Counted from the stretch's first letter, positions 24,488 through 44,239 are shown. The stretch is 47,398 bases of DNA from an uncultured Candidatus Saccharibacteria bacterium (GCA_964395435.1 CAYNAO010000003.1:1-47398), one strand, 5' to 3'. Numbers and translations: made by a program. The notes: generated by a model from the sequence alone, not told the origin.

Positions 24488-27400
24488 ATGCAACAATTAT
24501 TACATCCATATATTAAACAATTAGCAACTTTTCTTACTATAGTTTCTTTCTTTTTGGCGCCACTAGCGCCAATTTTTGCTCAAGAAGCAATTTCAAATCC
24601 TGAGCAAAGTAATACAGAAGAAATTAATAATACTTCTATTGATACTAATAATACGAATGAGATAAATACAGGGACAGTAGAAGAAAGTAATACTATTAAT
24701 CAAGAAGACAATTTGAGTAATGCTTCAAATGAAGAAATACCTATATCTAATGAAGAGGAGAGTAATGGTTTAAATGAAGAGCCTCAAAATCCCGAACCAT
24801 TAACTAATCCATCAGGAGGTTTTGGAAATGATACAAGAGATTTGCCTAATATTAATTTACCACAAATAGATAAAGCTTCAGGTGGTTTAGTTTATAATTT
24901 TGAAATTAAAACACCCCCTGGAAGAAATGGTTTTAATCCAAAAATCTCTTTAAATTATAATAGCCAAGAAAATGACAATCAAAATATTTTTGGATATGGA
25001 TGGGGTGTTGATATACCTTATATAAAAAGATTAAATAAAACAGGAATAGATAAATTATATATCGATAATTATTTTTACTCTTCTTTATCAGGGGAGCTTG
25101 TTTTGGTTTCTGGTAATACTTATGCTCCGAAAGTAGAAGACGGTAAATTTTTAACCTATAATTTTGATGGTACATATTGGACAATTAAAAATAAAGAAGG
25201 AATGATTTATAAATTTGGAGAAAATCCTTCAGCTAGACAAAATAATACAGATGATACAAAGACTTTTAAATGGATGCTAGAAGAAACAAGAGATACTAAT
25301 GATAATTATATAAAATATGAATATTATAAAGACGAAGGTCAAATATATCCTGAATCAATAATATATACAGGTAATGGTAATGTTGATGGAATTTTTTCTA
25401 TTTCTTTTTTAAGAGAAAGTAGAAATGATAATATTTTGCAAAATTATGCAGTTTTTAATGTTAAAACTAATTATCGTATAAATGAAATACAAACTAAAAT
25501 AAATGGTAATTGGGTTAGTAAATATGAATTAGATTATGTAAATGGTGATAATGGTAAAAGATCTTTACTATCAAGTATTATTGAATCTGGAAAAGATGAA
25601 ACTTTAAATATTGTAGTATTACCGGCTTTAGAATTTTCATATCAAACTATTACTTCAGGACCAGATTTCGTATCAGATTTTAGTTGGTCATCTTCACCAT
25701 CTCAAACTTTGTTTACTGATCCATCCTACGGTACAATTATTGCCGATGTAAATAATGATGGTTTACCTGATCTATTAGAGTCTTGGCAAAATCAAGATTA
25801 TTGGTATAGAGGTACATATTTAAATAATGGTGATGGAACTTGGACAGAGGATGAAAATCTAGAACCACCTTTTCCTTTTGCTGGAGAAGCTCCAATCCAT
25901 GAATTTGGAATCAGAGCAGCTGATATAAATGGTGATGGTTTAACTGATATTGTTCAAAGTTATAATAATGGTCCAGGTCAAAGTAATACTATTCAAAGAG
26001 TGTATATTAATACTGGTACATCTTGGTATCTTAATAATAACTGGGAGCCTAAATGTTTTTTTTCAGGTTGGCCAATGGGAGATCCTGGATGTCGGTTGTT
26101 TGATATAAATGGAGATAATTTACCTGATTTTGTTCAGGCAATTGGTGATAATAGTTGGAATCCACCAATTACTACTCAAGTTTATTTAAATAATGGTAAT
26201 GGTTGGAATTCACTTGATAATACATGGAATATTCCAATTGATTTAAGACCTGGTGTTATGATTGTTGATTATAATGGTGATGGTCTAGTTGATTTTTTAA
26301 AGGGATATAAAAATCCTAGCCCTAATCCCCCTATAGATATTAAACAAGCTTACAAAAACAATGGAGATAAAACTTGGTCTTTAGATTCTGCTTATGCGCC
26401 ACCTATTGCTTTTGCTGTTCAAACCAATCAGTCTGCTTTACCACTCAGTACTGGCACTGAGCTTGCAGATATTAATGGAGATGGTTTAATTGATATATTA
26501 AAAGGTACAGAAACGGAAAGTGGTGTTCATTTAAATAGTGGTACTGGATGGTATTTTTCCACAAGCTGGGATTTTGGTTATGGTTCTGCTCCACAATATA
26601 CACCTTCACCTGTGAGATTAGGTGATTTTGATGGTGATGGTATGATTGATAAATTTAATAGCGCCAGTGGTAGTTCTACTTTATCTAGAAATCAGAAAAA
26701 AAGAGCTGATTTAATGATTATTGCTGAAAATCAATACGGAGGTGTTACCGATATAGAATATAAAGCTACTCCTAAATATGTAAATTCTAATGGTGATCTA
26801 CTAAATCCTGATTTACCTTTTGTTATGATGACTGTGTATCAAACTACAAGTAACCCAGGTCAAGGAAATCCAAATATTATTAATACATACTTATATGAAG
26901 GAGGGGATTATTATTTTAATAATAATTTAGATAAAAGATTTTCTGGTTTTAATAAAATTTCTGAGAATGATTCTTTAAATAAAACAATTACCTATTTCCA
27001 CCAAGGAAATCAAACAGATTCTACTAATGGAGAATACGAAGATCATCCTTCAAAAATTGGTAAAGCTTATCGTATAGAAAGTTATAACAATTCAGGTAAT
27101 TTATACAACGCAGTAGTAAATAAATGGGATAGATATAATCAAGATACAGGTAGAGATTTTGTAAAGTTAAATAGAAAAACTAATCTTACTTATGATGGAG
27201 ATAATGATCACAAAGATACATCAGAAGAATATGTTTTTGAAGACACTTATGGTAATTTAACTCAAAGAGTATTTTGGGGAGAAGTAAATGCTAATAATGA
27301 TGGAACTTTTACTGACACAGGAAATGATAAATATACAGAAGAAATTACTTATGCAAATAATACTAATGAATATATTGTTGGATTACCTGCACAAGATGTT

Positions 27401-30400
27401 GTTATTGATCAGAATTCAAATAAAGTTCGTGAGTCAAAAACATATTATGATGGTGAAATTTTAGGTAATGTTGATATAGGAAATATTACTAAAGTTGAAA
27501 AATGGAAAGATGGAAATAATTATGTTGATACAGAAAAAACTTATGATGGTGTTTATGGTTTACCTATTACAATTACAGATGAAAGGGGAAATGTAACAAA
27601 TTATTCTTATGATCAATACAATCTCTATCCTGAAACTATTACAGATGCATTATCTTATGCTACTAATTATTTATATGATTATTCTTCTGGAAAAGTTAAA
27701 CAAACCATTACTCCAGATAATTTAACTTTCCAAACAGTATACGATGGACTAGATAGAGTAAAAGAAGAAAAAGTTCCGAATTTAGAATTTCCATTTGCTC
27801 CAGTAGTTAAAACTAGTTACCAATATATTGATAATGCAGGTGCTATTTCGATTATTCAAAATAATTATTTAGATGATTATAATCAAGTTGTAATTTATCA
27901 ATATTTTGATGGATTAAATAGACTGATTCAAGAAAGAAAAGAAACTGAAGGTTGGGATGAATATGCTACTAGAGATATTGTTTACAATTCAATTAATAAA
28001 ATAGAAAAAGAATCTTTACCATATATATCTAATGGAACAAGTAAAACTTCACCAACTACAATAAATAATTTGTATAAAAATTATACTTATGATGCAAATT
28101 ATAGAGTAGTAAATATTACAGATAGTATAGGTAATACTAATCATTCTTATGATGATTGGAAAACTACAATTACAGATCCAAATGGAAATATAAAACATTA
28201 TTATCGTGATGCTTACAGTAATTTAATTCGTGTTGATGAAATAAACGATACAGAAACTTATTCTACTTATTATGATTGGAATGGTAATCAAATGTTACTG
28301 AAAATTACAGATGCTTTAGGAAATGTTCGTAATTTTACTTATGATGGATTAAATAGAAGATTAACAGCAGAAGATTTACACCAAGTTAGTGATAACACTT
28401 TTGGAACTTGGTATTATTCTTATGATGATACTAGTAATTTAATTCAAGTAATTGATCCAAACGATAAAACTATTAATTATACTTATAACGACATTAATCA
28501 AAAATTAACTGAAGATGATATAGATACTACTGGGGTTGAAATTACATATTCATATAATGAATGTCTAAGTGGTATGTATTTGCTTTGTGGTGCTTTAATG
28601 ATTGATGGAAGTTATTTGCACTACACATACAATTCAAACAAAATCGTTGATGCTGAATTTAAAGAATTTGATGATGTAGATATGAAAATTTCTTATCATT
28701 ATGATAGACAGGGTAATTTAATTGAAATTATAAATCCTGATAAATCTGAAGTTAAATATAATTACGATTCAGCTGGACAAATTAATTATATTCAAAGAAA
28801 AGAAAGAGGCGATTGGAATTATAGTTATGTTATTCTCAATATTGATTATGGTCCAAACGGTAAGATTTCTTTGATTGAATACCCTAATGCAATTAAAACT
28901 AGATATCTATATGGCAATGATAATATGTATAGACTAAATAAAATAGTTACAACAAATTCAAGTAATATTTATTATGGTTCACCAAATACAGTTTATTTTT
29001 ATTCCAACAGATATGGTGATGGAAATATACAAAAATATAATACAGATTGGGATATTGCTCACGATTCAGATACCGGTTCTCCTAATGCTTCAAGTAATAT
29101 TAGTTATGTTAGAACTGGTAAGCATAGTGATAATTATTATGTTACAAGGGGATTGTTGCCTTTCGATACATCTACTTTACCAAGAGACGCTAATATAATT
29201 GATGCGAATTTAAGAGTCTATGTTCAAAATAAGAAAAATATTGACAATGATGGTAATGATTTTATAACTGTAGTTAACACAACTCAACAAAATGTGAATG
29301 AAATAAATCCCGAGGATTTTAATGAATTCGGAAATACAAATAATCCTATTGAAGGTATTGATGTTTCAGAGCGTAAAGATATAACAAATATATCTGAATA
29401 TGATTATTTAACTTTTAATTTAAATGAAACAGGAAGGTCTTGGATAGATAAAGTTTATTATACTAAATTAGGGTTAAGAGAAGGTCATGATGTATTAGAT
29501 GATTTGCCAGTTTCTCCAGATAATGAGACAGATTTTAATGAGGTAGAGTTTCGCACGGCAAATTACTCTAATGAAACATATGACCCTGTGCTTGAAGTAA
29601 CTTATACATTACCTCTTCCAACTGTTCTGCAAGACCTTGAATATACTTATGATGCAAATGGAAATATTATAGAAATTTTAGAAAATTCTAATACTGCATT
29701 GTCTAAGGATATGACATTAATTTATGATGATTTGAATAGGCTTAATTTGGTTACAGTTAATAATACCCCACAAGGTTACTTGCCTTACACTCAAACATTT
29801 AATTACAATGCTATTGGAAATATTTTATCTGGACCAGCAGGGACTTATGTTTACAGTAATAATAATTATACTAATCCACATGCACCTACAACTATATTTA
29901 ATTTACCTGCAAATAATAGACCTGTAATAGATTTAACGGGTGAAGATTTTGTTCAGTTGGTTGTAGGTGATACTTGGGCTGAGCCAGGTTATATGGCTAC
30001 TGATTTTGAAGATGGTAATTTAACTAATAGTGTTAATGTATTAGGAGATGTAGATACAAATGAAGCTGGTGTTTATCAATTAGTTTATTCTGTTTTGGAT
30101 TCTAATAATCAACCTGCTACTAATAAAATTAGAACAGTGTTTGTTAGAGATGTATATACTCCTTCATATATGTCTGTTAAAACCTTAGTTGTTGCTGGAG
30201 GTGGTTCAGGAGGACAAGCATCTTATTATGGTTCTGGTGGTGGAGGTGCTGGTGGTTTGTTGTATGAGTTAGATTATGAGGTTTTCGATCAGTCTTATCC
30301 TATTGTTGTTGGTTCTGGTGGTATAAATTGGACAAATGGTCAAAATTCTAGTTTTGATAATCTGGTAGCAATCGGCGGAGGACGAGGAGGGTCCTTGAGT

Positions 30401-32428
30401 GCTGGAAGTAAAAATGGAGCTTCTGGTGGCTCTGGTGGAGGTGGTTCAGGTGATGGTGTCGGAGGAAGTGGAATAGGTGGGCAGGGTTATTCCGGTGGTG
30501 GATCTTGGCTTAATTCTGGCGGAGGAGGTGGAGCTTCTTCTTCTGGCTACGATGGTGGAGTTAATCCTCCTGCTTCTAATGGAGGGAATGGTTTCACTAC
30601 AGACATAACTGGTTATAGTGTTTGTTATGCTGGTGGTGGGGGAGGTTTAAGGAATGGAGAAGGAACTGGTTTAGGTGTTTGTGGTGGTGGTAATGGTAGC
30701 TATTATGGTAATGACGCTACTCCTAATACTGGAGGTGGAGGTGGAGGTAGTGGTGCTTCTGGAAGTAGAAATGGTGGTTCTGGTATTGTTGTAATATCTT
30801 ATAAAACTGATGAAAGCAACGGAGTATCTCCACAATCTACTGGTGGAATAAAAACAACAGTTGGTGAATATACAATTCATAAATTTTTAAGCACTGATAC
30901 TTTTACTGTAGTTCCTGCAACTAATCCTCCTCCAAATGAAAGACCAGAAATTAATCTTAATGGTAATGATTTTATTGAATTAGAAATTAATGATACTTGG
31001 ACAGATCCAGGTTATACTGCTTTTGATGAAGAGGATGGAGATATTACTTCTCTTGTTGTGGCAGATGGTGTTGTGGATACTTCTACTTTAGGCATATACA
31101 CTATAGTGTATAGTGTAGAAGATTCACAAAATGTTCCAGCTTCAAGTAAAATAAGAACAATTTGGGTTAAAGATACTTTTAGTAATCCAAATATAGAACT
31201 ATCTTATGATAACAACGGAAACTTAATAGAAAAAGGTGAAGATCAATATGTTTGGAATTATAAAAATCAACTAATTGAATCAATAGTAAATGAAGAAGAA
31301 ATTTCATATACTTATGACCACAACGGTAACAGACTAAAAACCCAAAAAGGTAACGATAAAACATTCTTCCTAACCAAATACTACGAAATAGACCCAAGTG
31401 GTAAAATAATCAATAACATCTATGCAGGCAATCAATTACTTGCTACAATAGAAAAGGAAGGAGGATTAGTTGTTCCTTATTACATACATACAGACCACTT
31501 AAACTCTACAAACTTAATAACCAATGATAATACAGAAATAGTAAACCTTATTGATTATTACCCATTTGGAGAAACAAGAATCAAAGAAGGAAATTTTGAT
31601 TCAAAGAGAGAATACATTGGTCAAGTATATGACGAAGATACAGGACTTAATTATCTTAATGCTAGATATTATAATAATGTATCAGGGCAGTTTATATCTC
31701 AGGATCCGGTATTTCTTGTTATGGGTGATGCAAAGAAAACTGAAGAAGTCACAAAGATGAAACTAGAGAATGTTTTGATGGACCCACAGTCTTTAAATTC
31801 TTATTCTTATGCAAGAAATAATCCGATTGTTTATTCTGATCCAGAAGGAAAATTTGCACAATTGTTGCTTGGTGCTGGAGCAGGGTTGGTTGGCCAATAT
31901 GGTTATGATGTTTACAACAACATTCAAGCAAACGGGTTTAGTGCAAGTGCTTTTGTTCCAAGTTCTAGTGGTGGAACATATATAACTAGAGCAATACAAG
32001 GAGCACTTGTTGCAGGGGCTGGTATAGGAGCAAGCGCAATAACCAGCAATACTATTGGACAAGCGGCAACTGTTGGAATTGCATCAGGGTTAACTGGCGC
32101 AGGTGGTAATTATATTCTTGGACAAACAACAACATCACAATCAGTTGTAACAGATGCCGTAATTGGAGGTTTGACTTTTGGAGTAGTAAAGTCAGCTCCA
32201 TTGGTATCAGGTAGATTACCAAACTTGGGAACAGGAGCGTTTTTTGCAGGAAAACATACACAACAAAGTGCTATGCAATTAGGTGTTGATGCTGTTGCTT
32301 CTTATATTAGTTCACTGGTCGGTAGTTTCTCGTTAAATAGAAGTTATGTAAAACCAAACACGACTGTAAATAATCAAAGTTCGCATTCTACTTCTGGCCA
32401 ATTATTAAAAATTAAGAATACTCAATAA
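24488..32428 (+). CDS. secreted SpvB/TcdB-like plus RHS/YD-repeat polymorphic toxin (2646 aa) with inserted binding-like modules and a glycine-zipper C-terminal domain
   Basis: Signal peptide. SpvB-like GGLVYNFEIKTPPGRNGFNPKISLNYNS. FG-GAP/VCBS-like DINGDGL(T/I/V)D repeats. Many YD repeats (YDGLNRL, YDANGNI, YDHNGNR). RHS core end YIGQVYDEDTGLNYLNARYYNNVSGQFISQDP...NNPIVYSDPEGKF, followed by a roughly 190-aa Gly/Ala-rich tail. Confidence 0.88.
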   Translation: MQQLLHPYIKQLATFLTIVSFFLAPLAPIFAQEAISNPEQSNTEEINNTSIDTNNTNEINTGTVEESNTINQEDNLSNASNEEIPISNEEESNGLNEEPQNPEPLTNPSGGFGNDTRDLPNINLPQIDKASGGLVYNFEIKTPPGRNGFNPKISLNYNSQENDNQNIFGYGWGVDIPYIKRLNKTGIDKLYIDNYFYSSLSGELVLVSGNTYAPKVEDGKFLTYNFDGTYWTIKNKEGMIYKFGENPSARQNNTDDTKTFKWMLEETRDTNDNYIKYEYYKDEGQIYPESIIYTGNGNVDGIFSISFLRESRNDNILQNYAVFNVKTNYRINEIQTKINGNWVSKYELDYVNGDNGKRSLLSSIIESGKDETLNIVVLPALEFSYQTITSGPDFVSDFSWSSSPSQTLFTDPSYGTIIADVNNDGLPDLLESWQNQDYWYRGTYLNNGDGTWTEDENLEPPFPFAGEAPIHEFGIRAADINGDGLTDIVQSYNNGPGQSNTIQRVYINTGTSWYLNNNWEPKCFFSGWPMGDPGCRLFDINGDNLPDFVQAIGDNSWNPPITTQVYLNNGNGWNSLDNTWNIPIDLRPGVMIVDYNGDGLVDFLKGYKNPSPNPPIDIKQAYKNNGDKTWSLDSAYAPPIAFAVQTNQSALPLSTGTELADINGDGLIDILKGTETESGVHLNSGTGWYFSTSWDFGYGSAPQYTPSPVRLGDFDGDGMIDKFNSASGSSTLSRNQKKRADLMIIAENQYGGVTDIEYKATPKYVNSNGDLLNPDLPFVMMTVYQTTSNPGQGNPNIINTYLYEGGDYYFNNNLDKRFSGFNKISENDSLNKTITYFHQGNQTDSTNGEYEDHPSKIGKAYRIESYNNSGNLYNAVVNKWDRYNQDTGRDFVKLNRKTNLTYDGDNDHKDTSEEYVFEDTYGNLTQRVFWGEVNANNDGTFTDTGNDKYTEEITYANNTNEYIVGLPAQDVVIDQNSNKVRESKTYYDGEILGNVDIGNITKVEKWKDGNNYVDTEKTYDGVYGLPITITDERGNVTNYSYDQYNLYPETITDALSYATNYLYDYSSGKVKQTITPDNLTFQTVYDGLDRVKEEKVPNLEFPFAPVVKTSYQYIDNAGAISIIQNNYLDDYNQVVIYQYFDGLNRLIQERKETEGWDEYATRDIVYNSINKIEKESLPYISNGTSKTSPTTINNLYKNYTYDANYRVVNITDSIGNTNHSYDDWKTTITDPNGNIKHYYRDAYSNLIRVDEINDTETYSTYYDWNGNQMLLKITDALGNVRNFTYDGLNRRLTAEDLHQVSDNTFGTWYYSYDDTSNLIQVIDPNDKTINYTYNDINQKLTEDDIDTTGVEITYSYNECLSGMYLLCGALMIDGSYLHYTYNSNKIVDAEFKEFDDVDMKISYHYDRQGNLIEIINPDKSEVKYNYDSAGQINYIQRKERGDWNYSYVILNIDYGPNGKISLIEYPNAIKTRYLYGNDNMYRLNKIVTTNSSNIYYGSPNTVYFYSNRYGDGNIQKYNTDWDIAHDSDTGSPNASSNISYVRTGKHSDNYYVTRGLLPFDTSTLPRDANIIDANLRVYVQNKKNIDNDGNDFITVVNTTQQNVNEINPEDFNEFGNTNNPIEGIDVSERKDITNISEYDYLTFNLNETGRSWIDKVYYTKLGLREGHDVLDDLPVSPDNETDFNEVEFRTANYSNETYDPVLEVTYTLPLPTVLQDLEYTYDANGNIIEILENSNTALSKDMTLIYDDLNRLNLVTVNNTPQGYLPYTQTFNYNAIGNILSGPAGTYVYSNNNYTNPHAPTTIFNLPANNRPVIDLTGEDFVQLVVGDTWAEPGYMATDFEDGNLTNSVNVLGDVDTNEAGVYQLVYSVLDSNNQPATNKIRTVFVRDVYTPSYMSVKTLVVAGGGSGGQASYYGSGGGGAGGLLYELDYEVFDQSYPIVVGSGGINWTNGQNSSFDNLVAIGGGRGGSLSAGSKNGASGGSGGGGSGDGVGGSGIGGQGYSGGGSWLNSGGGGGASSSGYDGGVNPPASNGGNGFTTDITGYSVCYAGGGGGLRNGEGTGLGVCGGGNGSYYGNDATPNTGGGGGGSGASGSRNGGSGIVVISYKTDESNGVSPQSTGGIKTTVGEYTIHKFLSTDTFTVVPATNPPPNERPEINLNGNDFIELEINDTWTDPGYTAFDEEDGDITSLVVADGVVDTSTLGIYTIVYSVEDSQNVPASSKIRTIWVKDTFSNPNIELSYDNNGNLIEKGEDQYVWNYKNQLIESIVNEEEISYTYDHNGNRLKTQKGNDKTFFLTKYYEIDPSGKIINNIYAGNQLLATIEKEGGLVVPYYIHTDHLNSTNLITNDNTEIVNLIDYYPFGETRIKEGNFDSKREYIGQVYDEDTGLNYLNARYYNNVSGQFISQDPVFLVMGDAKKTEEVTKMKLENVLMDPQSLNSYSYARNNPIVYSDPEGKFAQLLLGAGAGLVGQYGYDVYNNIQANGFSASAFVPSSSGGTYITRAIQGALVAGAGIGASAITSNTIGQAATVGIASGLTGAGGNYILGQTTTSQSVVTDAVIGGLTFGVVKSAPLVSGRLPNLGTGAFFAGKHTQQSAMQLGVDAVASYISSLVGSFSLNRSYVKPNTTVNNQSSHSTSGQLLKIKNTQ
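31331..31712 (+). repeat. RHS core-end segment duplicated at 32916-33297 (roughly 95% identical by eye)
   Basis: agactaaaaacccaaaaaggtaacgataaaacattcttcctaacc... matches 32916 onward with scattered substitutions. Similarity ends at gatccggt. Confidence 0.85.
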
Positions 32429-34482: not shown

Positions 34483-36243
34483 TTAATTCAACTCTTTATA
34501 GTCTGTTTTCAGGAACCTGTTTCTACGATTAAAACTGGCAATCGTGTGTTTTTGAATATTAAGTTTAATTTGATTTTTTCGTTCTTCGTGTTCAATTTTG
34601 TCTCTATTGAGTGTTAATATATATTGAAAATCTATATTTTTTTCTTGTTCAGCAAGAAAGTTTAGGCTTTGGACTAATGTGTCTTGATCTACATCAAAAA
34701 TATTATCATGTATAAGAAACATTGGATGGTGTTGTTTTGTGTTTTTGTTTGTTAATAATCCTATGTCATAAATAAATACTTTTGTTCTATCAACACTATG
34801 ACTTCCATCATCAGGGATTCGTAAATCTAATTTGATAATCTGCTTACTAGAGGATGTTTTAATAGTTTTAATATCAAAGGATACTTCTACATTACCCATA
34901 ATGTATTCATGTATTTCAGCAAGAGTTTTATTGAACCCTTTTATTTGATTTGTGGTTTCAAAAATTTTTGTATCGAGTTCAGAAAATAGGTTGTCTTTTT
35001 TTAATTTTAAAATATCAATTTCTCTGTCTAGTCGCTCGTATTCTCCAAGATTAGATTGAGTCGATGCAAGTTCGTCTTTTCTTTTTGTGTAAGAATAAAA
35101 GCTTTCTTTTATAATACTTAATGAATCTGTCTTATCAATACTTATAAGCATTCCAGCTCTTTTTTCATCTAAGTTGTTTAGGTCTTCTTGGATCTTCTTA
35201 ATTTCTGATTTAATTTCCTCAGCTCGTTCGTTAATAAGCAAGTTCTGATATTTCTCAATTTTTTTCTTAAAGTTGATAACTTCTGTTATAGATTTTGAAA
35301 CAATTTCTCCTAAACCATTTTTAAATTTATCATAAACTATTTGTATGTCGCTTATATTTACATTTTCAACTTTAGGCATAGATTCAATCCGTTTTAGTTC
35401 GTATTTTAGTGCTATTTGTTTGATTCTTAATTGCTCAATAGTAGAGTCAATTTTTACAAGAGCTTCTTGGTTTTGTTGGAAAATCGGCTCAGTCTTAAAT
35501 TTATTTAAAGACTCTTCTGCTCTTGATAACTCTAATTCTAATGCATTAATTTCAGCTTTTACATCGGAAACTTTCTTTTTCCCAGAATCAGTTAATCTCT
35601 TTTTTAAATGATTCTGTGTTTGTGATTTTTCTTCAACATCTTTAAAAATACTTTTAATTTCTTTAACGAAAGAAGGATTAATACCAAAAAGATAAAGATG
35701 TGTTTTTATTAAATCTGAATTTGGTATTTTTGATCTAAGGTCGTAACAATTAACTATATCTTTAAATTCAGAATCTTCGTCTCTAATTAGTGGACCTAGT
35801 AGCTCTCTAAAGCTTGGTCTTTCTATTTTTTCGTCTTTGTTTTTTTCATAAAAAAGATTAGTTAGATATCTTAATGCATCATTAGAGTCTTTGTATAAGG
35901 TAAGTTCTCCATCAACTTCTATAGAGGGCTTGTTGGGTTCATGTATTGTTCTTTCTATTGTTACTTTCTTGTTATTAATATCTAAATCAAGACAAATTTT
36001 TGTCTCATAAGAAAATTTATCAAAAGGAATTTTCATAACTCTGCTTGAGTCTGCATCTTTAAAAAGACAGAAATTTATAAATTCTACTGACATTGATTTC
36101 CCCACACCATTTGTTTTTTTGTCTTTTCTAGTTTTTGTTTCGTTTTCAGAAACTTTTTCACCAAGAATAAGATTAACCCCATCCCTGAATTCAATAGGAT
36201 CAAATGTTTGAGGTATTGAATATAGTTTTTTTAATTTAATCAT
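34483..36243 (-). CDS. coiled-coil ABC/SMC-like ATPase (DUF2326-like; ABC-three-component system ATPase)
   Basis: N-terminal Walker A KKTNGVGKSMS, a long central coiled coil, and C-terminal Walker B-like HHPMFLIHDNIFDVD. It is the last gene of a three-gene minus-strand operon with 4-nt and 10-nt junctions. Confidence 0.65.
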   Translation of the reverse strand: MIKLKKLYSIPQTFDPIEFRDGVNLILGEKVSENETKTRKDKKTNGVGKSMSVEFINFCLFKDADSSRVMKIPFDKFSYETKICLDLDINNKKVTIERTIHEPNKPSIEVDGELTLYKDSNDALRYLTNLFYEKNKDEKIERPSFRELLGPLIRDEDSEFKDIVNCYDLRSKIPNSDLIKTHLYLFGINPSFVKEIKSIFKDVEEKSQTQNHLKKRLTDSGKKKVSDVKAEINALELELSRAEESLNKFKTEPIFQQNQEALVKIDSTIEQLRIKQIALKYELKRIESMPKVENVNISDIQIVYDKFKNGLGEIVSKSITEVINFKKKIEKYQNLLINERAEEIKSEIKKIQEDLNNLDEKRAGMLISIDKTDSLSIIKESFYSYTKRKDELASTQSNLGEYERLDREIDILKLKKDNLFSELDTKIFETTNQIKGFNKTLAEIHEYIMGNVEVSFDIKTIKTSSSKQIIKLDLRIPDDGSHSVDRTKVFIYDIGLLTNKNTKQHHPMFLIHDNIFDVDQDTLVQSLNFLAEQEKNIDFQYILTLNRDKIEHEERKNQIKLNIQKHTIASFNRRNRFLKTDYKELN

Positions 36244-36467
36244 TTTTTATAAATATATGGTTCAGCAAATTCGACCAGACCTGTTTGATATAAAAAAATA
36301 AGCGAAAAAATAACTTGCCTGTGGCTTATAGATCCTAATTCTTGTTTTAAGTTTAAAATTATTTCGTCTAGCATTAATTTTTGTTCTTTAGCCTTTGTCA
36401 GTTTTTTTAATACCAAAAAACCAATATATGGAGATGATGTTTTTATTTTTTCGTCTTTATTTATCAT
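36240..36467 (-). CDS. small middle component of the three-gene ABC system
   Basis: 75 aa. Overlaps the ATPase start by 4 nt (atga). The size and position fit the ABC-3C middle component, but no motif was verified. Confidence 0.5.
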   Translation of the reverse strand: MINKDEKIKTSSPYIGFLVLKKLTKAKEQKLMLDEIILNLKQELGSISHRQVIFSLIFLYQTGLVEFAEPYIYKK

Positions 36468-36476
36468 AATGAATTT

Positions 36477-37430
36477 TTAATTAGGAAACACATTACACTT
36501 TATTAATTCGTCTAATAGATAGAATCGGATCGCTTGATAATCATGTTTTTTACCATCTCTACTAATCTCAGTATCAAAATACTCTGTTAGGTTAGCTAAA
36601 GCTTTTGTTGGGTTACCATCGGCTTGTGTTAGAAAAATATCACTTTTTATTCTTAAAAAATCTCTAATAAATTGAACTTTCACGGAATCTAGGTTAAGTT
36701 TTTCATCTACTTCATTTCGTGCTAAAGCATACCTTGGTAATAAATCGACAATTTGTGTTTTTAAGAATGTTGATTCCGCAGAAAACCTGTGTTCAATTTT
36801 CTTTTGTGGATCAGGTTCCTCGACCCATTTTTTTATATCAGCTTCTTTGTTGTTGCTTAAAAAAACAACAAGATCGGCGATTGTTTCAACTTCGTTTGCT
36901 AAAACTAGTTCGCTTTTGTTTTCTTTCTGACTATCAAACTCTTCTTTGAGAATTGATAAAATTTCGTTTATTTTTTTAGGGTTAAGGAGTCTAATAAGTG
37001 CAATTAAATCAGATAAACAAATAATATCTTTTGAATAATCAAAATCAACATTCTCAGGTCCTACAATTTTACTTTTAGTATTGGGTTTTTTGCTTGAAAT
37101 TAATATAAATTTTAATGATTTAAATTTCTTAAACAATTCATGTTCATTAAATTTTTTAATTGTTTCTTTAATTTTTTTAGTTGTATTTTCGGAAGTCACC
37201 TGTATTGAGACTTTTTTCTCTATGTCTCCAAGATCTACAGAAGGAAAATTTGTTTTAATAATATTTAAATTAACTAAGTTTAAATCGAAAATTTTATTAA
37301 GTATATTACAAAAAAAATCTTCAGAATAGCTATTTATATCAGTAAATCCATTTGCATTATTTATTTTTACTGAAGATTCGAGTCTAGAAAAATAACTAAT
37401 GATTTCATTAATAAGATTATGTCTTTCCAT
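36477..37430 (-). CDS. SMEK-like N-terminal domain protein (first, effector-type component of the ABC-3C-like operon)
   Basis: N-terminus MERHNLINEIISYFSRLESSVKINNANGFTDINSYSEDFFCNILNKIFDLNLVNLN...FPSVDLGD..KKVSIQVTSE matches my memory of the SMEK domain consensus. The C-terminal half is unassigned. Confidence 0.5.
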   Translation of the reverse strand: MERHNLINEIISYFSRLESSVKINNANGFTDINSYSEDFFCNILNKIFDLNLVNLNIIKTNFPSVDLGDIEKKVSIQVTSENTTKKIKETIKKFNEHELFKKFKSLKFILISSKKPNTKSKIVGPENVDFDYSKDIICLSDLIALIRLLNPKKINEILSILKEEFDSQKENKSELVLANEVETIADLVVFLSNNKEADIKKWVEEPDPQKKIEHRFSAESTFLKTQIVDLLPRYALARNEVDEKLNLDSVKVQFIRDFLRIKSDIFLTQADGNPTKALANLTEYFDTEISRDGKKHDYQAIRFYLLDELIKCNVFPN

Positions 37431-37473: not shown

Positions 37474-38817
37474 TTACAAAGATGGATTTTGATTAAATTT
37501 CAAACTAATCTCCTTGTCTCTAATCTCAACTTTTCCTCGCAAGCAACTCAATAGTTCTCGTTTTTCATACCTTGTTCCATTTTTAAGGATATGTTTTGCG
37601 TAATTCTTGATATCTGCTTCTATTGGTCTATTATCAAATTCTGTTTCTCTTCCTAATACTGTGTAGCTAAATTGTCTATATTTGTTTATCTCATATTCAA
37701 TCTTTTGCTTCATCCCAATTTCATCAAGATCTATTTTATCTATCAGTCTAATTAGTTGCTCTAAAAGATTTTCTTCTCTTAACGCTCCTTGTTTGCAATA
37801 TCTATCTGCCGAATGACTACAATGATAATACACATATCTATGAGACTTGCCATTTTTACAATGTTTGAATTTTTCTTCAGCCGTTATTCCTGATCTACAA
37901 GCACCACAGAAAAATAATCTTGTGAATTCAAATTCATTTGTTCCTGGGTGTCTACGAGATGGAGCATTTATATTTGCTCGTGCTTTTAAATATAATTCTT
38001 TAGTAATTATAGGATCATAGGAACCCTTGTACCATTTACCACTATTGGTGGGGTATTCAAATTCTCCATAATAATAAGTATCTTTGAGTATGGTAAATAT
38101 TGCACTTAATGCAATTCTTTTTCCAGACCTTGTAGTAAAATTCTTTTCTAGATTAAGCCATGTTAATAAATCTCTACCACTATAATTTTCATATGCTACT
38201 TTCTCAAACATTTCTTTTATAATTGGAGCTCTGACTTCATCGATCAATACTCGTTTTTGTCCCTTGTCTGCATATTTATCATGAATGTATCCAAGAGGAG
38301 ACATTCCAGGTCTAAACCCCATCTCGCATTTTGCTCTAAGTCCTCGTTTTACATTTTCTCCCTTGTGATCATTTTCAAGTTTTGCTTGTGAACATAAAAT
38401 CATAAGTAAAAACTTTTCGTTTGGTGAATTTGTAAATCTTTGTCCGTGCGTTCGTATATCAATTAGCATTCCTGCATCCATTAAATCAACTACCTTACCC
38501 AAGTCTCCTGCATTTCTTGAAATACGAGAAGGATCCCAAGCAATGAGTCCGCTAAACTTTCCATTTCTAATATCTTCTATGATTGTCTGAAATACTGGTC
38601 TTTGTCCTGATTCTTTTGCTGAATGACTTTCTTTTCTGACTTCTACGATATACAAACCCTCTTTTTCTGCCATATCTTTCATCTCTTTGATTTGTGAATC
38701 AATAGACAAAGCTTGCAATTCATCTTGCTCGGTTGATTTACGAGCGTAAAGACAGTATTTAACCGGGATTGTTAAATTGATCTTTTCTTGCGTTACATTA
38801 AGTATATTTGTTTGCAC
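37474..38817 (-). CDS. large serine recombinase (resolvase catalytic domain, recombinase domain, zinc ribbon)
   Basis: YCLYARKSTEQDE supplies the catalytic Ser context, followed by SRISRN. The recombinase domain includes GFRPGMSPLGY. The zinc ribbon is CGACRSGITAEEK...YYHCSH. GTG start. Confidence 0.85.
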   Translation of the reverse strand: MQTNILNVTQEKINLTIPVKYCLYARKSTEQDELQALSIDSQIKEMKDMAEKEGLYIVEVRKESHSAKESGQRPVFQTIIEDIRNGKFSGLIAWDPSRISRNAGDLGKVVDLMDAGMLIDIRTHGQRFTNSPNEKFLLMILCSQAKLENDHKGENVKRGLRAKCEMGFRPGMSPLGYIHDKYADKGQKRVLIDEVRAPIIKEMFEKVAYENYSGRDLLTWLNLEKNFTTRSGKRIALSAIFTILKDTYYYGEFEYPTNSGKWYKGSYDPIITKELYLKARANINAPSRRHPGTNEFEFTRLFFCGACRSGITAEEKFKHCKNGKSHRYVYYHCSHSADRYCKQGALREENLLEQLIRLIDKIDLDEIGMKQKIEYEINKYRQFSYTVLGRETEFDNRPIEADIKNYAKHILKNGTRYEKRELLSCLRGKVEIRDKEISLKFNQNPSL

Positions 38818-38907: not shown

Positions 38908-39714
38908 ATGAAAGTTTTAACGTTTTTATCGAAAAAGGATATAGAAAAATTCATTGATGAGGAGGCTTATGGTGTTATTGAGTACCTTCTTCGCAAGGTA
39001 GCTTTTTCTCAGCCAGAAGTTAAAGATAAATCAGAATTATCTGGAATTCAGATTACTAAAGAATTTTTGGAAGATTGGATAGCTCAAGCATGTAATCTAA
39101 CAAAAGTCGGTGCAGGCAACTATCCTATTGATGTTTATTCTAAAAATAAATATGGCATAGATGTTAAATTCCTAACTGCAAAAATAAATAAAAATGGAGA
39201 CTATACTAATAGTTATTCAAACGAAACCTCTCTTAGTCAAAATTTCAAAATAGCTGGTCTTGATTTAGACCAGATGTTTGCAAGTAAAAAATACGAAAAT
39301 ATATTATTGGCTTGGATAAAAATATTAGAAGCGAAGATTTTAATCCCAATAAATGATTTTAATTTAAAAAAGGTTTATTACTTTATTTTTATAAGAGCTG
39401 GTAATAAGGTATCTCTAGCTATTGCAGATGTAAATAATAAAGAGATAAGAAACCTAAAAACTAATCGCTCTACAGATACATCTGTATTTGTGCAAAATTT
39501 TATTGAAGACAGATATGGAAATGTAAAGATATATAAAAGTAAAAAAAGAATGGAATTAAGGGTTTTTCCAAAAGCATTGGAAGAAGATAATAAATTAATA
39601 TCTTGGAACTTTGAAAACTTTTATCCCGATATAATTTCTTTAAGAGATGTTGTTAAAGATAAAAAAATAGAACAACATTCAAAAAAACAATTTAAAAAGT
39701 TTTTTGGTGAATAA
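38908..39714 (+). CDS. putative type II restriction endonuclease (PD-DxK motif)
   Basis: NYPIDVYSKNKYGIDVKFL gives PD...(12 aa)...DVK. The gene abuts the C5 methyltransferase gene tail to tail with 0 nt of spacer. Confidence 0.5.
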   Translation: MKVLTFLSKKDIEKFIDEEAYGVIEYLLRKVAFSQPEVKDKSELSGIQITKEFLEDWIAQACNLTKVGAGNYPIDVYSKNKYGIDVKFLTAKINKNGDYTNSYSNETSLSQNFKIAGLDLDQMFASKKYENILLAWIKILEAKILIPINDFNLKKVYYFIFIRAGNKVSLAIADVNNKEIRNLKTNRSTDTSVFVQNFIEDRYGNVKIYKSKKRMELRVFPKALEEDNKLISWNFENFYPDIISLRDVVKDKKIEQHSKKQFKKFFGE

Positions 39715-41292
39715 TTATTCCATCGCTTTCATAATCTGTTTTGCTATTGCTTCTATAACCGGTACACTTACTGAGTTTCCAGCTTGTTTGTATAGGGCTG
39801 AGTCTGCGATATTAGGTAATATGTATTCTTTAGGGAACCCTTGTAACCTAAAACATTCAAGGGGAGTTAATTTTCTTATACCTTTCTTGTCTTTAATGAT
39901 AGGAACATTGTGTCCACCCATACCCATATTTGCTGTGAGGGTCGGACAAACTCCGCTTTTATTTTCACGAACATATTGCCTACGCCATTGGTAAACCCTG
40001 CCTTCTTCTTTGACATCTTTCTTTAATCTATCAAATAATGGTTTACCATTATAGTAATATTTTTCAGGTACGTTTTTCTCTAACAAGTCAGTGATCCTCT
40101 TTGTTAGTTTTACAGGTTCAGGGAAATTAAACCTTTCGGCATATTCTTTGTTTTTGAAACCAACTATATATATACGTTCACGATTCTGGGGAACATTACC
40201 ATATTCCATGCTATTTAAGACTTTGTACTTAACATGATAGCCTAAGTCTAGCAATGTCTCTTCAATTACTTTAAATGTATTTCCACCGTCATGACTTTTT
40301 AAGTTTTTAACGTTCTCGAGCATGAATCCCTCAGGTTGTCTTGCTTGAATAATTTTTGCAATATCAAAAAATAAATTACCTCTATTTTTAGGATCGTCGA
40401 ATCCTTTTCTGTATCCAGCAATAGAAAATGCCTGGCAAGGAAATCCTCCTAATAAAAAATCAAAGTCTGGTAAATCGTTTATCCCAATTTTCCTTATATC
40501 TTCTACAATAAGTTTTGAGTCTGTAAAATTTAAATCATATGTTTTTTTGCAAGGTTCATCAAAATCATTCGCAAACACAGTTTTAAAACCAGCATTTTCA
40601 AATCCCTTTCGAATACCACCCACTCCAGCGAATAAATCTATAGTCTTGAAGCCGTGTTTCGTTTTATTCTTAGGGTTTATCTCTTTCTCTGTTTTTACAT
40701 CACGAATTACTTGCACAACAACACCTCTTATTTCAACGTGGGTTCGGAATAATGGCTTCATGTCTGGATTTCTAGGTTGTAATCTTATTTTCTTATCTTC
40801 TCTGTATATTTTCTTTAATGTGGCTTCATTATCATCAATAATAGCGACAACAGTCTGTCCGTTTTCTGCCACCGACTGCTTTTTGATTACTACAATATCT
40901 CCATCATATATACCTTCATCTATCATACTATTTCCAACTACTCGCAAAGCGTAGTGGTCTTTGGCACTTTTAATATTTGGATTGATTATTGATATTGTGT
41001 CCTCAATATTTTCTATTGCCTCAATAGGTTGACCAGCAGCTATTCTTCCAACAATAGGAATTTCTATAACTGATTTTATTTCTTTCTTTGGCGTAATGCT
41101 TCTAGGTGAGTTTTCAGATTTAGATAAATAACCCTTTTCTTTTAGGGAAGCAATATGTTCATGAACAGTAGAAATAGCTTTAAGTTTTAATTTTTTTCTT
41201 ATCTCATCAATGGTTGGAGATATACCATTCTCATTTATGTAAGTATTAATGAAGTCAAAAACTTCTTTTTGCTTTTTTGTTAATGTTGACAT
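39715..41292 (-). CDS. LexA-like repressor (wHTH plus S24 peptidase) fused to DNA (cytosine-5) methyltransferase
   Basis: Residues 1-199 contain LTKKQKEVFDFI..NGISPTIDEI (LexA DNA-binding domain), VGRIAAGQP (Ala-Gly cleavage site), VVGNSMIDEGIYDGDIVVI (Ser nucleophile) and ATLKKI (Lys). Residues 217-525 carry C5-MTase motifs DLFAGVGG, GGFPCQAFS, ENVKNL, QNRERIYIVG and GNSVSVPV. The start is moved to the ATG at 41292. Confidence 0.85.
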   Translation of the reverse strand: MSTLTKKQKEVFDFINTYINENGISPTIDEIRKKLKLKAISTVHEHIASLKEKGYLSKSENSPRSITPKKEIKSVIEIPIVGRIAAGQPIEAIENIEDTISIINPNIKSAKDHYALRVVGNSMIDEGIYDGDIVVIKKQSVAENGQTVVAIIDDNEATLKKIYREDKKIRLQPRNPDMKPLFRTHVEIRGVVVQVIRDVKTEKEINPKNKTKHGFKTIDLFAGVGGIRKGFENAGFKTVFANDFDEPCKKTYDLNFTDSKLIVEDIRKIGINDLPDFDFLLGGFPCQAFSIAGYRKGFDDPKNRGNLFFDIAKIIQARQPEGFMLENVKNLKSHDGGNTFKVIEETLLDLGYHVKYKVLNSMEYGNVPQNRERIYIVGFKNKEYAERFNFPEPVKLTKRITDLLEKNVPEKYYYNGKPLFDRLKKDVKEEGRVYQWRRQYVRENKSGVCPTLTANMGMGGHNVPIIKDKKGIRKLTPLECFRLQGFPKEYILPNIADSALYKQAGNSVSVPVIEAIAKQIMKAME

Positions 41293-41325
41293 ATTGCTTA
41301 AATATATTGACTTTGCTACAATTTG

Positions 41326-41355
41326 ATTATATCCGAAACAAAACCGAAAGTCCAA
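41326..41355 (-). promoter_or_regulatory. promoter of the LexA-MTase gene, with a direct repeat in its spacer
   Basis: On the minus strand: TTGGAC (41355-41350), an 18-nt spacer, then TATAAT (41331-41326). The spacer contains ccgaaac-aaaa-ccgaaag (plus-strand reading, 41333-41350). The 85-bp region is shared with the divergent KAP gene. Confidence 0.5.
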
Positions 41356-41377
41356 GCCGGATATCCACAATAAATAT

Positions 41378-44239
41378 ATGTTAACGCATAAAATCCAAAA
41401 AATATTTGATTTAAAACCATCGAATTATAAGAAATTATTTAATGAATCATATTTTCCTCGCAGTGTTTTTTGGCTATTAACGATCTCGGTTACTTTATCT
41501 TATTTTATTTGGAATTTTTTTGAGGGTATTTTTTCTAATAATTTAATGAGGGATTTGCATAAAATAAATCATTCAGTACTTTTTATTTCTTCTATATTTT
41601 TGATAGTAATACTAACTGGATTATTTGTATTTTTTATTAAACCAAAAGAACAACTTAAAACACAAAAAATTCATAATCAACCATCTTGGATATTTTACAC
41701 TTATTGGGGAATGATAAACTCTTTTTTACTTACTTCATTATATCTAAGACTAGAGCAACAAAAACTATTCTGGGTATCAATGCTTATACCATTAGTCATA
41801 ATTAAAGTTAAATTTCTCTATGAAATTTTTTATCAAGAGAAAGATCTTTCTTTTAAGAATTTCGCCTCAGGTTCTGTTGGTCTAGATGGTGACAAATTTG
41901 AATTTAAGCAAACAGCTGAGCATACTACTGATGGATTATTAAAATTAAATAATTATATAAATGTTGTTGGTCTGTATGGAGGCTTAGGATTTGGTAAATC
42001 ATCTTATGCCCGAATGGTGCTTGAAGGATTTGATTATAAGAAAACTCTCTATACTTACATTTCTTTGACTGAAACAAACGAAGCCAAAGATTTCTCAAGT
42101 CTTTTCTCAGAACGATGGCTTGAGACTCTTTCTGAGAGGTATCCAAAAATAGATATTACTACCTATTTACCTTTTATGGATTCTATCTTACGAGAATCTG
42201 GTAATAGTATTTTTTCTGGCATACTAAAAGCGGTTTCTTTTTTTGATAGAGGTCTTCATAAGACAAAAGCTTTATTTTTTGATGAGTTTTATTCAAAAAA
42301 AGAAAAGTTTACGAGTAATAATGTTGGTAAACTTTTTGGTAACATCCCAGAAATTAAAGAATCTCTTTGGGTTATACTTATAGATGAACTAGAAAGAGCA
42401 CAACTTGATGAGATTTACCGTGTCGTTGAAATCGTTGAACGCTTTAAAAATGAAGGTAGGTCTGGATTACCAACAAAACTTCTATTTTTATTCTGTATCT
42501 CAGAGCCAGACCTTGGTAATTATCTTGATTCGTTTAATGAAAAGGATACAAGAGCACCATTGCTTAAAACTTTCTTTTATCAAGACCCGAAGAGTATTTC
42601 TCATAAAATTTTCTTACCACCAGTTAAACCTGCTATAAAAGAAAAATTTGTCATAGAACTTTTAAATACCCTTATTGAAAGAGAACAAATAAAACATCAA
42701 GGAAATGTATCTCCAAATTTAATATTGGATCCCTCAAGTTCATTCATGAAGGATGAAGATGCCTTAAATCATATTCTTTACTTGATTATTGAGGAAAGTT
42801 CCCCAAGAACAATTTCTAGAATTGTAAGTGCTTTAGACTTTTTTTATGGGTCATTTAAAAATAAAGCCGGAGAATTAGACAAAAATGCTATTCGTTTTAG
42901 TGATATTATCGCTCTTGAATATATAAAAATTAAATATCCATACCTTATTGACTTTTTCACAAAAACGATAGGTGTTCTCGTAAGTCAATCTGATAGAAAT
43001 AATTTGAATGCTTATCTTATTCATCAACATCTAAAGGAAAACAAAGTAGACTTAATTGGTTGGGTTGAATCTGTTACAGATAAAAAATTCACAGATAAAG
43101 AAAAGCCAGAAATATTAAACATGATTGGATTAGTTATGCACTATTACTTTGATTTTATCAAAGAAGATCGATACAAAGAGAATAAAATTGATTATGTTAA
43201 TAGTACTTCTTATCCAGAAAAAATGAGAGATTATTTGACACTAATATCTGGGGGGACAGAAACTCCGTATAGAAAAAGTAATGAACTCTATCAGCAACAC
43301 CAAGAAGGCAAACTCAAAATAAAAGAAATAAGTAACGATGACTTAATTAGTTACGCTAGATTTATTTATGATGTTACTAATACAAAACAAGAGATGAATG
43401 TTGAAGTTCTTAATGAGCTTACAGATAGAATTATTAATAAAACTATTGCGCCAAAACCTTTAGCAATGGGTGATAGTATCTATGATGACGCTTTATATCA
43501 ATTTATATTCCAAATAGTTAGTATTGCAGAAAAAGAACGTAACAATGATGTTGCGAGTGAACATCTCAAAAAGGCATTCGAGTGTCTAAGAAAGGTTCTT
43601 TCATCATCTATCAATGTCGGTGCAAAATATATAATCTTAAATTCACTTTCTAATAATGAGCGTGGAAGTGGTAGCTCTGTGCACATGAGCCTTATTGCAA
43701 CATTTAATAAACTATATAAATTCTTTCCTGAAGGAATCAAAAAACTAATTAACGCAGTGTTTTTAGATGGTCAAACAAGATATTTCAAGAAAGGTGCTAG
43801 AGGTGTGATTTATAAAACAGAAGAAAATTTCTTCTTCTTGATGTATCAAACATGGAGTGGTTTAAAAGATAATATAGAAGAAATAAGTCTTATAAGAAAA
43901 GCTGCAGAAAGAGATCTCAAAAAATATCCTGATGCAATTAAGATCTATTGGGATCGCTACCCTTATCAAAAGAATTGGGAATCCTCTCAAGATGTTCTTA
44001 GGGAAGATAGGTTTTTCTTTAATAGTGATAAAAACAGTGATTTATATATGCCGATAAATACTCTAATTAAAGTTACCAAGCAAGCAAATATAAAAGATGA
44101 AGCGATCATTTCAAAGATGAAGTTCTGGTCAAAAATAAAAGATGACCCTGCTATTAGAGAGAGGTTTACGATAGCAGACGATCCATCTACCCTAAAATCA
44201 TTCCTAATAAAAGTTGGTCTGTTAACTGTGGGTAACTGA
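41378..44239 (+). CDS. KAP-family P-loop NTPase with four N-terminal TM helices
   Basis: Four hydrophobic helices lie in the first 150 aa. Walker A is VVGLYGGLGFGKSSYARMV and Walker B is WVILIDELERAQ. A long helical C-terminal region follows. Confidence 0.65.
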   Translation: MLTHKIQKIFDLKPSNYKKLFNESYFPRSVFWLLTISVTLSYFIWNFFEGIFSNNLMRDLHKINHSVLFISSIFLIVILTGLFVFFIKPKEQLKTQKIHNQPSWIFYTYWGMINSFLLTSLYLRLEQQKLFWVSMLIPLVIIKVKFLYEIFYQEKDLSFKNFASGSVGLDGDKFEFKQTAEHTTDGLLKLNNYINVVGLYGGLGFGKSSYARMVLEGFDYKKTLYTYISLTETNEAKDFSSLFSERWLETLSERYPKIDITTYLPFMDSILRESGNSIFSGILKAVSFFDRGLHKTKALFFDEFYSKKEKFTSNNVGKLFGNIPEIKESLWVILIDELERAQLDEIYRVVEIVERFKNEGRSGLPTKLLFLFCISEPDLGNYLDSFNEKDTRAPLLKTFFYQDPKSISHKIFLPPVKPAIKEKFVIELLNTLIEREQIKHQGNVSPNLILDPSSSFMKDEDALNHILYLIIEESSPRTISRIVSALDFFYGSFKNKAGELDKNAIRFSDIIALEYIKIKYPYLIDFFTKTIGVLVSQSDRNNLNAYLIHQHLKENKVDLIGWVESVTDKKFTDKEKPEILNMIGLVMHYYFDFIKEDRYKENKIDYVNSTSYPEKMRDYLTLISGGTETPYRKSNELYQQHQEGKLKIKEISNDDLISYARFIYDVTNTKQEMNVEVLNELTDRIINKTIAPKPLAMGDSIYDDALYQFIFQIVSIAEKERNNDVASEHLKKAFECLRKVLSSSINVGAKYIILNSLSNNERGSGSSVHMSLIATFNKLYKFFPEGIKKLINAVFLDGQTRYFKKGARGVIYKTEENFFFLMYQTWSGLKDNIEEISLIRKAAERDLKKYPDAIKIYWDRYPYQKNWESSQDVLREDRFFFNSDKNSDLYMPINTLIKVTKQANIKDEAIISKMKFWSKIKDDPAIRERFTIADDPSTLKSFLIKVGLLTVGN

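Follow-up and report, generated by a model that had tools for sequence, protein, structure and literature searches.

A LexA–cytosine methyltransferase fusion as the probable autorepressed methylase of a type II restriction–modification module in Patescibacteria

The LexA–methylase fusion gene and its domains

A stretch of 47,398 nucleotides from an uncultured Candidatus Saccharibacteria bacterium (GCA_964395435.1, CAYNAO010000003.1:1-47398; hereafter the window, meaning this whole stretch) encodes a single protein in which a LexA repressor is joined to a C5 cytosine DNA methyltransferase. An earlier note, made from the DNA alone, had described the gene as one 525-codon open reading frame (ORF) carrying the LexA hallmarks that can be picked out by eye (a helix-turn-helix (HTH) domain, an Ala-Gly cleavage site, a serine nucleophile and a lysine), followed by a lysine-rich linker of about 17 residues and a complete Dcm-type methyltransferase. 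ORF calling on the window returns exactly this uninterrupted frame, starting from an ATG at position 41292, and every quoted motif is present. The scan that the note had proposed, for PF01726, PF00717 and PF00145, matches all three families on the 525-amino-acid protein, with the linker at residues 200-216 and a full-length PF00145 match after it. The gene and its parts are as follows.

39715..41292, minus strand: lexA–dcm fusion gene, predicted M subunit of the module; 525 amino acids, 177 distinct full-length homologues
41101..41292, minus strand: LexA winged-HTH DNA-binding domain, residues 1-64; Pfam PF01726 (LexA_DNA_bind), 9.8e-18
41032..41037, minus strand: codons of the scissile bond Ala86-Gly87, aligned with E. 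coli LexA Ala84-Gly85
40714..41058, minus strand: S24 autoprotease and dimerisation domain, residues 79-193; PF00717 (Peptidase_S24), 1.1e-31
40927-40929 and 40813-40815, minus strand: codons of Ser122 and Lys160, respectively, within the S24 domain
40645..40695, minus strand: lysine-rich interdomain linker, residues 200-216, 17 amino acids, TEKEINPKNKTKHGFKT
39727..40650, minus strand: C5 cytosine DNA methyltransferase domain, residues 215-522; PF00145 (DNA_methylase), 2.4e-94, full model
40435-40437, minus strand: codon of the methylase catalytic Cys286; the target recognition domain (TRD) spans approximately residues 401-480

An alternative TTG start lies 26 codons upstream and would give a 551-amino-acid ORF; the ATG is preferred because the homologues and the position of the promoter support it. 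The first 199 residues score 202 bits against the NCBIfam lexA equivalog TIGR00498, for which the cut-off is 111, and the remainder of the protein scores 350 bits against the dcm model TIGR00675. In a HMMER alignment to crystallised E. coli LexA, the sequence IAA^GQP of the fusion falls on VAA^GEP at Ala84-Gly85, Ser122 corresponds to Ser119 (the column that reads Ala in the S119A entry 1jhh), and Lys160 corresponds to Lys156. The recognition helix of the LexA domain lies at about residues 41-47 (STVHEHI). The methylase half contains motifs I, IV (with the PCQ cysteine), VI (ENV), VIII and X together with a TRD, matches the PADLOC MTase_II profile at 1.2e-128, and has M.HhaI as its nearest solved structure (5e-59, full-length match). 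At 525 residues with a methylase attached, the protein departs from the roughly 200-amino-acid size of a stand-alone LexA. An AlphaFold model of the fusion (39 close homologues) reached a mean predicted local distance difference test (pLDDT) score of 60, with the S24 region below 50, and yielded no usable domain packing or cleavage-site geometry. Pfam, NCBIfam and the E. coli LexA alignment agree, and at the level of sequence a genuine LexA–Dcm fusion with intact cleavage and catalytic residues is confirmed.

Conservation and distribution

Fusion homologues were collected from Patescibacteria, also known as the Candidate Phyla Radiation (CPR), as 177 distinct sequences of 59-90% identity. Across them Gly87, Ser122, Lys160, the PCQ cysteine and ENV are invariant, and Ala86 is retained in 176 of 177, with a single Thr. 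Conservation of the Ala-Gly site and of the S24 Ser/Lys pair, on which the earlier note had made its finding depend, is thereby upheld. The linker is the least conserved segment of the alignment, with a mean commonest-residue frequency of 0.52 as against 0.8-0.9 in the domains, and the TRD is the most conserved at 0.92.

A protein search recovered at least 120 clusters (at 90% identity) that are 78-90% identical to the fusion across 100% of its length and carry the same three domains. These clusters derive from NCBI, JGI, ENA and Logan assemblies, and their source names indicate Parcubacteria-type lineages. When one genome per species was scanned, at least 577 relatives came up; the 66 best loci are full fusions, at 59-87% identity. 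Hosts include Paceibacteria, Nomurabacteria, Uhrbacteria, Saccharibacteria and others, and one of the loci lies on the finished TM7i chromosome (Saccharibacteria; CP075337.1). The same unbroken three-domain ORF is present in at least 60 species genomes. With so many clusters and genomes sharing the ORF, a frameshift or merge at the junction, for which the earlier note had wanted read data, is excluded without reads. The LexA–methylase architecture is common in CPR bacteria and occurs in hundreds of Patescibacteria genomes. Annotation pipelines name such proteins as either LexA or cytosine methyltransferase, and PGAP labels the 525-amino-acid proteins 'transcriptional repressor LexA'. Among viral contigs (IMG/VR), only unfused relatives of the methylase were found, with no sign of a phage-borne fusion.

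A putative mobile restriction–modification module

The fusion gene has a consistent neighbour. Of 60 fusion loci, 57 have a convergent ORF no more than 70 nucleotides from the fusion stop; this ORF overlaps or abuts the fusion in 35 loci, and in 20 the gap is at most 12 nucleotides. These partners belong to six unrelated families: Bsp6I-like (24 loci), NgoFVII_C-like (18), PDDEXK_5 (7), two families lacking a Pfam match, and the 268-amino-acid type of the window (5 loci). The corresponding genes in the window are listed below.

38908..39714, plus strand: putative restriction endonuclease (R), 268 amino acids, convergent, its stop abutting the M stop; PD-(D/E)XK motif
37474..38817, minus strand: large serine recombinase neighbouring R; Resolvase, Recombinase and Zn_ribbon_recom domains

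The 268-amino-acid partner has approximately 96 homologue clusters, none of them annotated, and its PD-(D/E)XK motif (P73-I-D75...D85-V-K87) is invariant in 40 homologues. Its structural model has a pLDDT of 93. A fold search of this model against the PDB gave nothing significant (best E = 0.05), and the weak matches are all type II restriction enzymes, led by NhoI/Eco15I, which was solved with methylated target DNA. Members of this partner family also stand beside the fusion's methylase family in L025, L054, L057 and L075. The restriction–modification (R-M) context that the earlier note had assumed for the methylase is thus supported both across the loci and in the window.

The serine recombinase is likely to be the mobility function of the module; homologous recombinases flank it in 10 other loci, and the flanks of fusion loci are otherwise unrelated to one another. 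By its gene context, the fusion is the M subunit of a type II R-M module, which is judged mobile because its flanks vary, serine recombinases recur and its R partners are interchangeable. C-protein-like HTH genes lie beyond R in 13 related loci, and none occurs in the window. A divergent Vsr-like gene of about 135 amino acids is found upstream of the fusion in seven loci (L006, L020, L021, L041, L043, L045 and L058); a very-short-patch repair endonuclease of this kind would fit an active 5-methylcytosine methylase. Separately, locus L076 (6235-8322 and 10652-11257) holds an unfused methylase relative next to an NgoFVII-like nuclease; the nuclease is divided between ORFs of 245 and 129 amino acids, possibly inactivated, and a stand-alone lexA gene lies 3.5 kb from this pair.

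The target of the methylase is probably GCNGC, modified to 5-methylcytosine (m5C). This assignment draws on the depletion of GCNGC, on the Bsp6I (GC^NGC) and NgoFVII (GCSGC) partners, and on the highly conserved TRD. Of the short palindromes, GCNGC shows the strongest depletion in 656 kb of fusion loci, with 833 copies found where 1377 would be expected (an observed/expected ratio (O/E) of 0.61), and in the window, with 18 copies for an expected 36, it ranks second. An M.HhaI-like GCGC specificity was rejected, as GCGC is not depleted (O/E 1.01). The most depleted four-letter palindrome in the window is ACGT (11 observed against 44.7 expected, O/E 0.25), a sign that a further restriction specificity may be at work on this genome.

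Promoter and candidate operator

Upstream of the fusion ATG lies a promoter whose spacer contains a direct repeat.

41333..41349, minus strand: candidate operator, period-11 direct repeat TTTCGG-TTTTG-TTTCGG in the spacer between -35 and -10; sole match in the window
41326..41354, minus strand: sigma-70-type promoter TGGACT-17-TATAAT; promoter scan, 10 of 12 matches
41349-41354 and 41326-41331, minus strand: -35 box and -10 TATAAT, respectively
41361..41369, minus strand: TGTGGATAT, one mismatch from the DnaA-box consensus (TGTGGATAA = TTATCCACA); conserved upstream of -35
41315..41323, minus strand: conserved AATTGTAGC directly downstream of -10; present in most aligned upstream regions

The position of the promoter is conserved across loci, and about 60 of them share one layout: the TGTGGATAA element, the -35 box, TTTCGG-N5-TTCGG with an 11-bp period, TATAAT and AATTGTAGC. 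The last of these may mark where transcription starts or provide another binding site. The operator has 42 exact copies in 880 kb of related loci, 40 of them at the fusion promoter position, and a position weight matrix scan of the window and these neighbourhoods found no further strong sites beyond the module promoters and the native lexA promoter in L076. The two half-sites change in step with each other and with the recognition helix: TTCGG occurs with STVH(E/Q)H, TTTCTA with STAH(Y/H)Y, TTTCGA with STVHYH, and ATATTAG with PTIFQF. This covariation is the strongest indication so far that the repeat is what the LexA domain recognises. With a LexA-type operator in its own promoter, autoregulation of the fusion and its coupling to RecA and DNA damage appear reasonable.

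The DnaA-box-like 9-mer is conserved in Patescibacteria lexA promoters, fused and stand-alone alike (L001-L066 and L102-L181). Exact copies number 42 in the same 880 kb, 27 of which are at fusion promoters, and its density upstream of lexA is 1.53 per kb compared with 0.019 per kb elsewhere, an enrichment of about 80-fold. This distribution suggests that DnaA or another factor co-regulates lexA.

Two further ideas about the promoter were set aside. Methylation-sensitive control does not fit the window promoter, which contains no GCNGC; GCTGC is found at -35 in some Saccharibacteria-type promoters, inconsistently across loci. A possible inverted repeat linking the TGTGGATA(A/T)C box with the -10 region was dropped, as covariation was seen in two loci only.

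Origin of the LexA half and related fusions

The promoter design is shared with native lexA genes. The stand-alone 201-amino-acid lexA of L076, whose product is 42% identical to the LexA half in the window, has a TTATCCACA box, TTGACT, GTTCG-N6-GTTCGG and TATAGT in the same layout. A period-11 repeat of the TTCG-N7-TTCG type lies upstream in 48 of the 77 metagenome LexA loci with sufficient upstream sequence, most of which are stand-alone and about ten fused. On this comparison, the direct repeat that forms the candidate operator was inherited from lexA genes native to Patescibacteria. For Alphaproteobacteria, LexA boxes in direct-repeat form (GTTC-N7-GTTC) are on record (PMC8565304), and PMC7739468 cites Sanchez-Osuna et al. 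2017 for Patescibacteria.

LexA is also joined to methylases of other families. Metagenome loci encode LexA–N6_N4_Mtase proteins (L143, L181 and L155) and LexA–N6_Mtase/Eco57I proteins (L149, L162, L166 and L167). A convergent, stop-abutting partner is present in all seven loci checked, namely six of these fusions and the LexA–Dcm locus L172; L149 was left out because its contig ends within the gene. Partners at the seven loci include an MvaI/BcnI enzyme and a BsaWI-type enzyme. When the LexA half was searched against 1.84 billion representatives, most of the nearest 60 or so were proteins of 300-890 amino acids with LexA at the N terminus, and ordinary 200-amino-acid LexAs appeared only at 48% identity or below. 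All 46 long representatives that were scanned contain both LexA domains, and the Ala-Gly, Ser and Lys columns are invariant in all 46. Their C-terminal parts, assigned in 43 of 46, are N6_N4 (28), Eco57I/N6 (7), D12 (5) and C5 (3) methylases.

In a neighbour-joining tree (no bootstrap), the fused LexA modules form one clade apart from 50 of 53 stand-alone-length representatives, with the methylase classes interspersed within it. The native LexA of L076 and the split LexA of L077 fall outside this clade, and the other three stand-alone-length representatives (P0254, P0270 and P0310) nest inside it. Promoter, operator and cleavable repressor together appear portable across four methylase families, and the fusion of one LexA clade to all four counts in favour of selection for the linkage.

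The C5 methylase family has other fusion partners as well: a complete RadC (UPF0758_N plus JAB domain) in L081:5221-6936 and L083:5290-7005, and a MerR/HTH_17 domain in L070:790-1956. At L077:5989-7556, a 197-amino-acid lexA and a 325-amino-acid methylase are separate genes with an ATGA stop/start overlap, under a promoter with its own period-11 repeat, ATATTAG-N4-ATATTAG. This split could represent an evolutionary intermediate or a frameshift in that metagenome-assembled genome.

Other genes in the window

The R-M module lies in a candidate defence island. Adjoining the serine recombinase, at 34483-37430 on the minus strand, is a three-gene ABC-3C-like conflict system comprising DUF2326 (PADLOC PDC-M68B), MC6 and a SMEK-domain protein. 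On the other side, a 953-amino-acid protein with a weak match to KAP-family P-loop proteins is encoded divergently from the fusion (41378-44239, plus strand) and completes the island. Its start codon is 85 nucleotides from the fusion ATG, and its promoter must therefore overlap the region predicted to be under LexA control; this neighbour is not conserved in other loci. Further away are a 2646-amino-acid ORF (24488-32428, plus strand) and, amid housekeeping genes, a DUF3800 protein (5600-6253, plus strand) that matches the PADLOC candidate defence family PDC-M04A at 2.7e-11.

Proposed mechanism and alternative readings

The reading preferred here, with a probability of roughly 0.55, is that the fusion is an autorepressed methylase belonging to a mobile type II module and probably targeting GCNGC, that this methylase acquired a complete LexA with a native-type promoter and operator, and that it is induced by RecA-stimulated self-cleavage to bring about restriction alleviation triggered by the SOS response. 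The architecture, residue conservation, operator position, covariation of operator and helix, R-M context and GCNGC depletion were computed. DNA binding, cleavage, induction and transcriptional interference are inferred from them.

Under this proposal, the fusion would dimerise through its S24 domain, and the two winged-HTH domains would bind TTTCGG-N5-TTTCGG in the gene's own promoter, holding methylase synthesis at a set level. A module entering a naive cell would meet no repressor and would produce a burst of methylase. RecA filaments would form on single-stranded DNA after damage, during phage attack, or when the module's own nuclease cuts an under-methylated chromosome, and they would stimulate the Ser122/Lys160 dyad to cleave between Ala86 and Gly87. 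Cleavage would remove the DNA-binding domain and de-repress the promoter while leaving an intact S24–methylase fragment, so that methylase activity would rise. Since R is convergent and abuts the M stop with no terminator between them, stronger transcription of M should also interfere with R expression and damp it. Overall, restriction would be alleviated in response to the SOS signal, and this feedback would protect the genome.

Several points weigh against this proposal. Both LexA fragments are degraded in E. coli after cleavage, and if the S24–methylase fragment met the same fate, methylase activity would fall. Transcriptional interference is predicted from gene geometry, and the GCNGC specificity from partner identity and site depletion. 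A housekeeping LexA, if present in fusion-bearing genomes, would dominate the operator.

The main rival, considered unlikely, is a suicide switch of the abortive-infection type. RecA filaments arising from phage replication would trigger cleavage, the resulting fragment would be unstable or mislocalised, methylation would lapse, and a stable restriction enzyme would destroy the chromosome of the infected cell, following the logic of post-segregational killing with a damage signal. The strict conservation of the cleavage residues suits such a switch, as does the location of the module in a defence island with ABC-3C-like and KAP-like genes. The cleaved N-terminal fragment would moreover end in ...IAA, resembling the end of cleaved E. 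coli LexA that ClpX recognises as a degron. However, loss of the repressor domain would most simply lead to increased M transcription; the methylase domain is left intact, methylation already in place lasts for one generation, and the C-terminal fragment carries no sequence mark for degradation. Sequence cannot decide between this switch and alleviation.

Two other alternatives appear improbable, to a similar degree. The fusion could be the sole SOS master repressor of the cell, with the methylase as a passenger or targeted to SOS boxes. It bears the PGAP name of a LexA repressor and scores above the lexA equivalog cut-off, and its operator is of the type found in native lexA genes, so it could bind host SOS boxes. 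However, the fused clade is separate from 50 of the 53 stand-alone LexAs and only about 42% identical to a native Patescibacteria LexA, the operator is found almost exclusively at the module's own promoter in the 880 kb of neighbourhoods, and the variable flanks, recurrent serine recombinases and interchangeable R partners are those of a mobile module. Alternatively, the LexA half could act only as an autoregulator that dimerises and binds DNA, comparable to the N-terminal HTH of M.SsoII, with self-cleavage playing no role. N-terminal HTH autoregulators of C5 methylases are known, and the MerR-type HTH in L070 sits on the same methylase family; dimerisation alone would not, however, require Gly, Ser and Lys to be invariant in 177 of 177 homologues (Ala in 176) and all four residues to be invariant in 46 of 46 wider fusions. 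Finally, an assembly or frameshift artefact merging two genes can be regarded as already refuted, for although L077 does have lexA and M as two overlapping genes, the same fused ORF recurs in independently assembled clusters (at least 120) and in a finished chromosome.

A broader generalisation of the RecA-responsive, autorepressed methylase is offered tentatively, at somewhat less than even odds: LexA–methylase fusions may constitute a distinct and widespread regulatory class of R-M systems in Patescibacteria, in which recombination has attached a single portable LexA module, operator included, to at least four methylase families and many nucleases. The methylase itself would sense RecA filaments, and self-cleavage would re-set the balance of methylation and restriction during DNA damage, self-restriction or phage attack.

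How a host avoids killing itself when repair, recombination or replication stress leaves unmethylated sites is well understood for type I systems only. The fusion may link self-protection to DNA damage; if it does, type II systems would have a simple solution in a methylase that brings a RecA-responsive switch with it, and defence systems would join the SOS network of Patescibacteria. Despite the tiny genomes of these bacteria, hundreds of species carry the fusion. The portable module may also serve as a damage-responsive genetic part, and the hypothesis is directly testable with a single purified protein.

Comparison with known systems

Full-text literature searches found no published description of a LexA–methylase fusion; a paper on a Thermus phage reports separate LexA-like genes, not a fusion. 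The earlier note was aware of no characterised example. The architecture is not rare: it is present in hundreds of Patescibacteria genomes and is one case of a wider class spanning four methylase families. The individual domains are known, as is the concept of a methylase that regulates itself through a fused HTH; a cleavable LexA in R-M methylases of four families is, as far as can be told, uncharacterised.

Like LexA of E. coli and Thermotoga maritima, the fusion has a winged HTH, an Ala-Gly site, a Ser/Lys dyad and a predicted operator in its own promoter. It differs in bearing a methyltransferase of 325 residues, in belonging to a separate clade, in residing in a putative mobile R-M module, and in having an operator essentially confined to its own promoter. 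The stand-alone LexAs of Patescibacteria share the promoter design (a -35 box, a TTCG-N7-TTCG-type repeat in the spacer, a -10 box and a nearby TTATCCACA box); they are about 200 amino acids long, lack a methylase and are only about 42% identical to the LexA half of the fusion.

C5 methylases of the M.SsoII, M.EcoRII and M.MspI type carry a short N-terminal HTH autoregulator that lacks a protease and is not known to be connected with RecA, and their M and R genes are typically divergent. The fusion likewise places a DNA-binding domain N-terminal to a C5 methylase, where it presumably represses its own promoter and sets the R/M balance. In contrast, it has a whole cleavable LexA (HTH plus S24) and convergent M and R genes, and the resemblance is functional only. 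R-M systems controlled by C-proteins have a small HTH controller upstream of R, which the window lacks. The earlier note's comparison with SsoII/EcoRII methylases and C-proteins therefore survives as an analogy and fails as to a homologous short HTH, divergent M and R genes and an upstream controller gene, R and M being convergent in the window.

With Bsp6I and Fnu4HI (GCNGC) and NgoFVII (GCSGC), the module shares partner families in related loci and the depletion of GCNGC, whereas the partner in the window belongs to an unannotated PD-(D/E)XK family. The closest parallel in proposed outcome is the SOS-linked restriction alleviation of type I systems, which proceeds through ClpXP proteolysis of HsdR. 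In both cases self-restriction would be reduced when damage or repair yields unmodified sites; in the LexA–methylase fusion, unlike in type I systems, the sensor would be built into the methylase itself.

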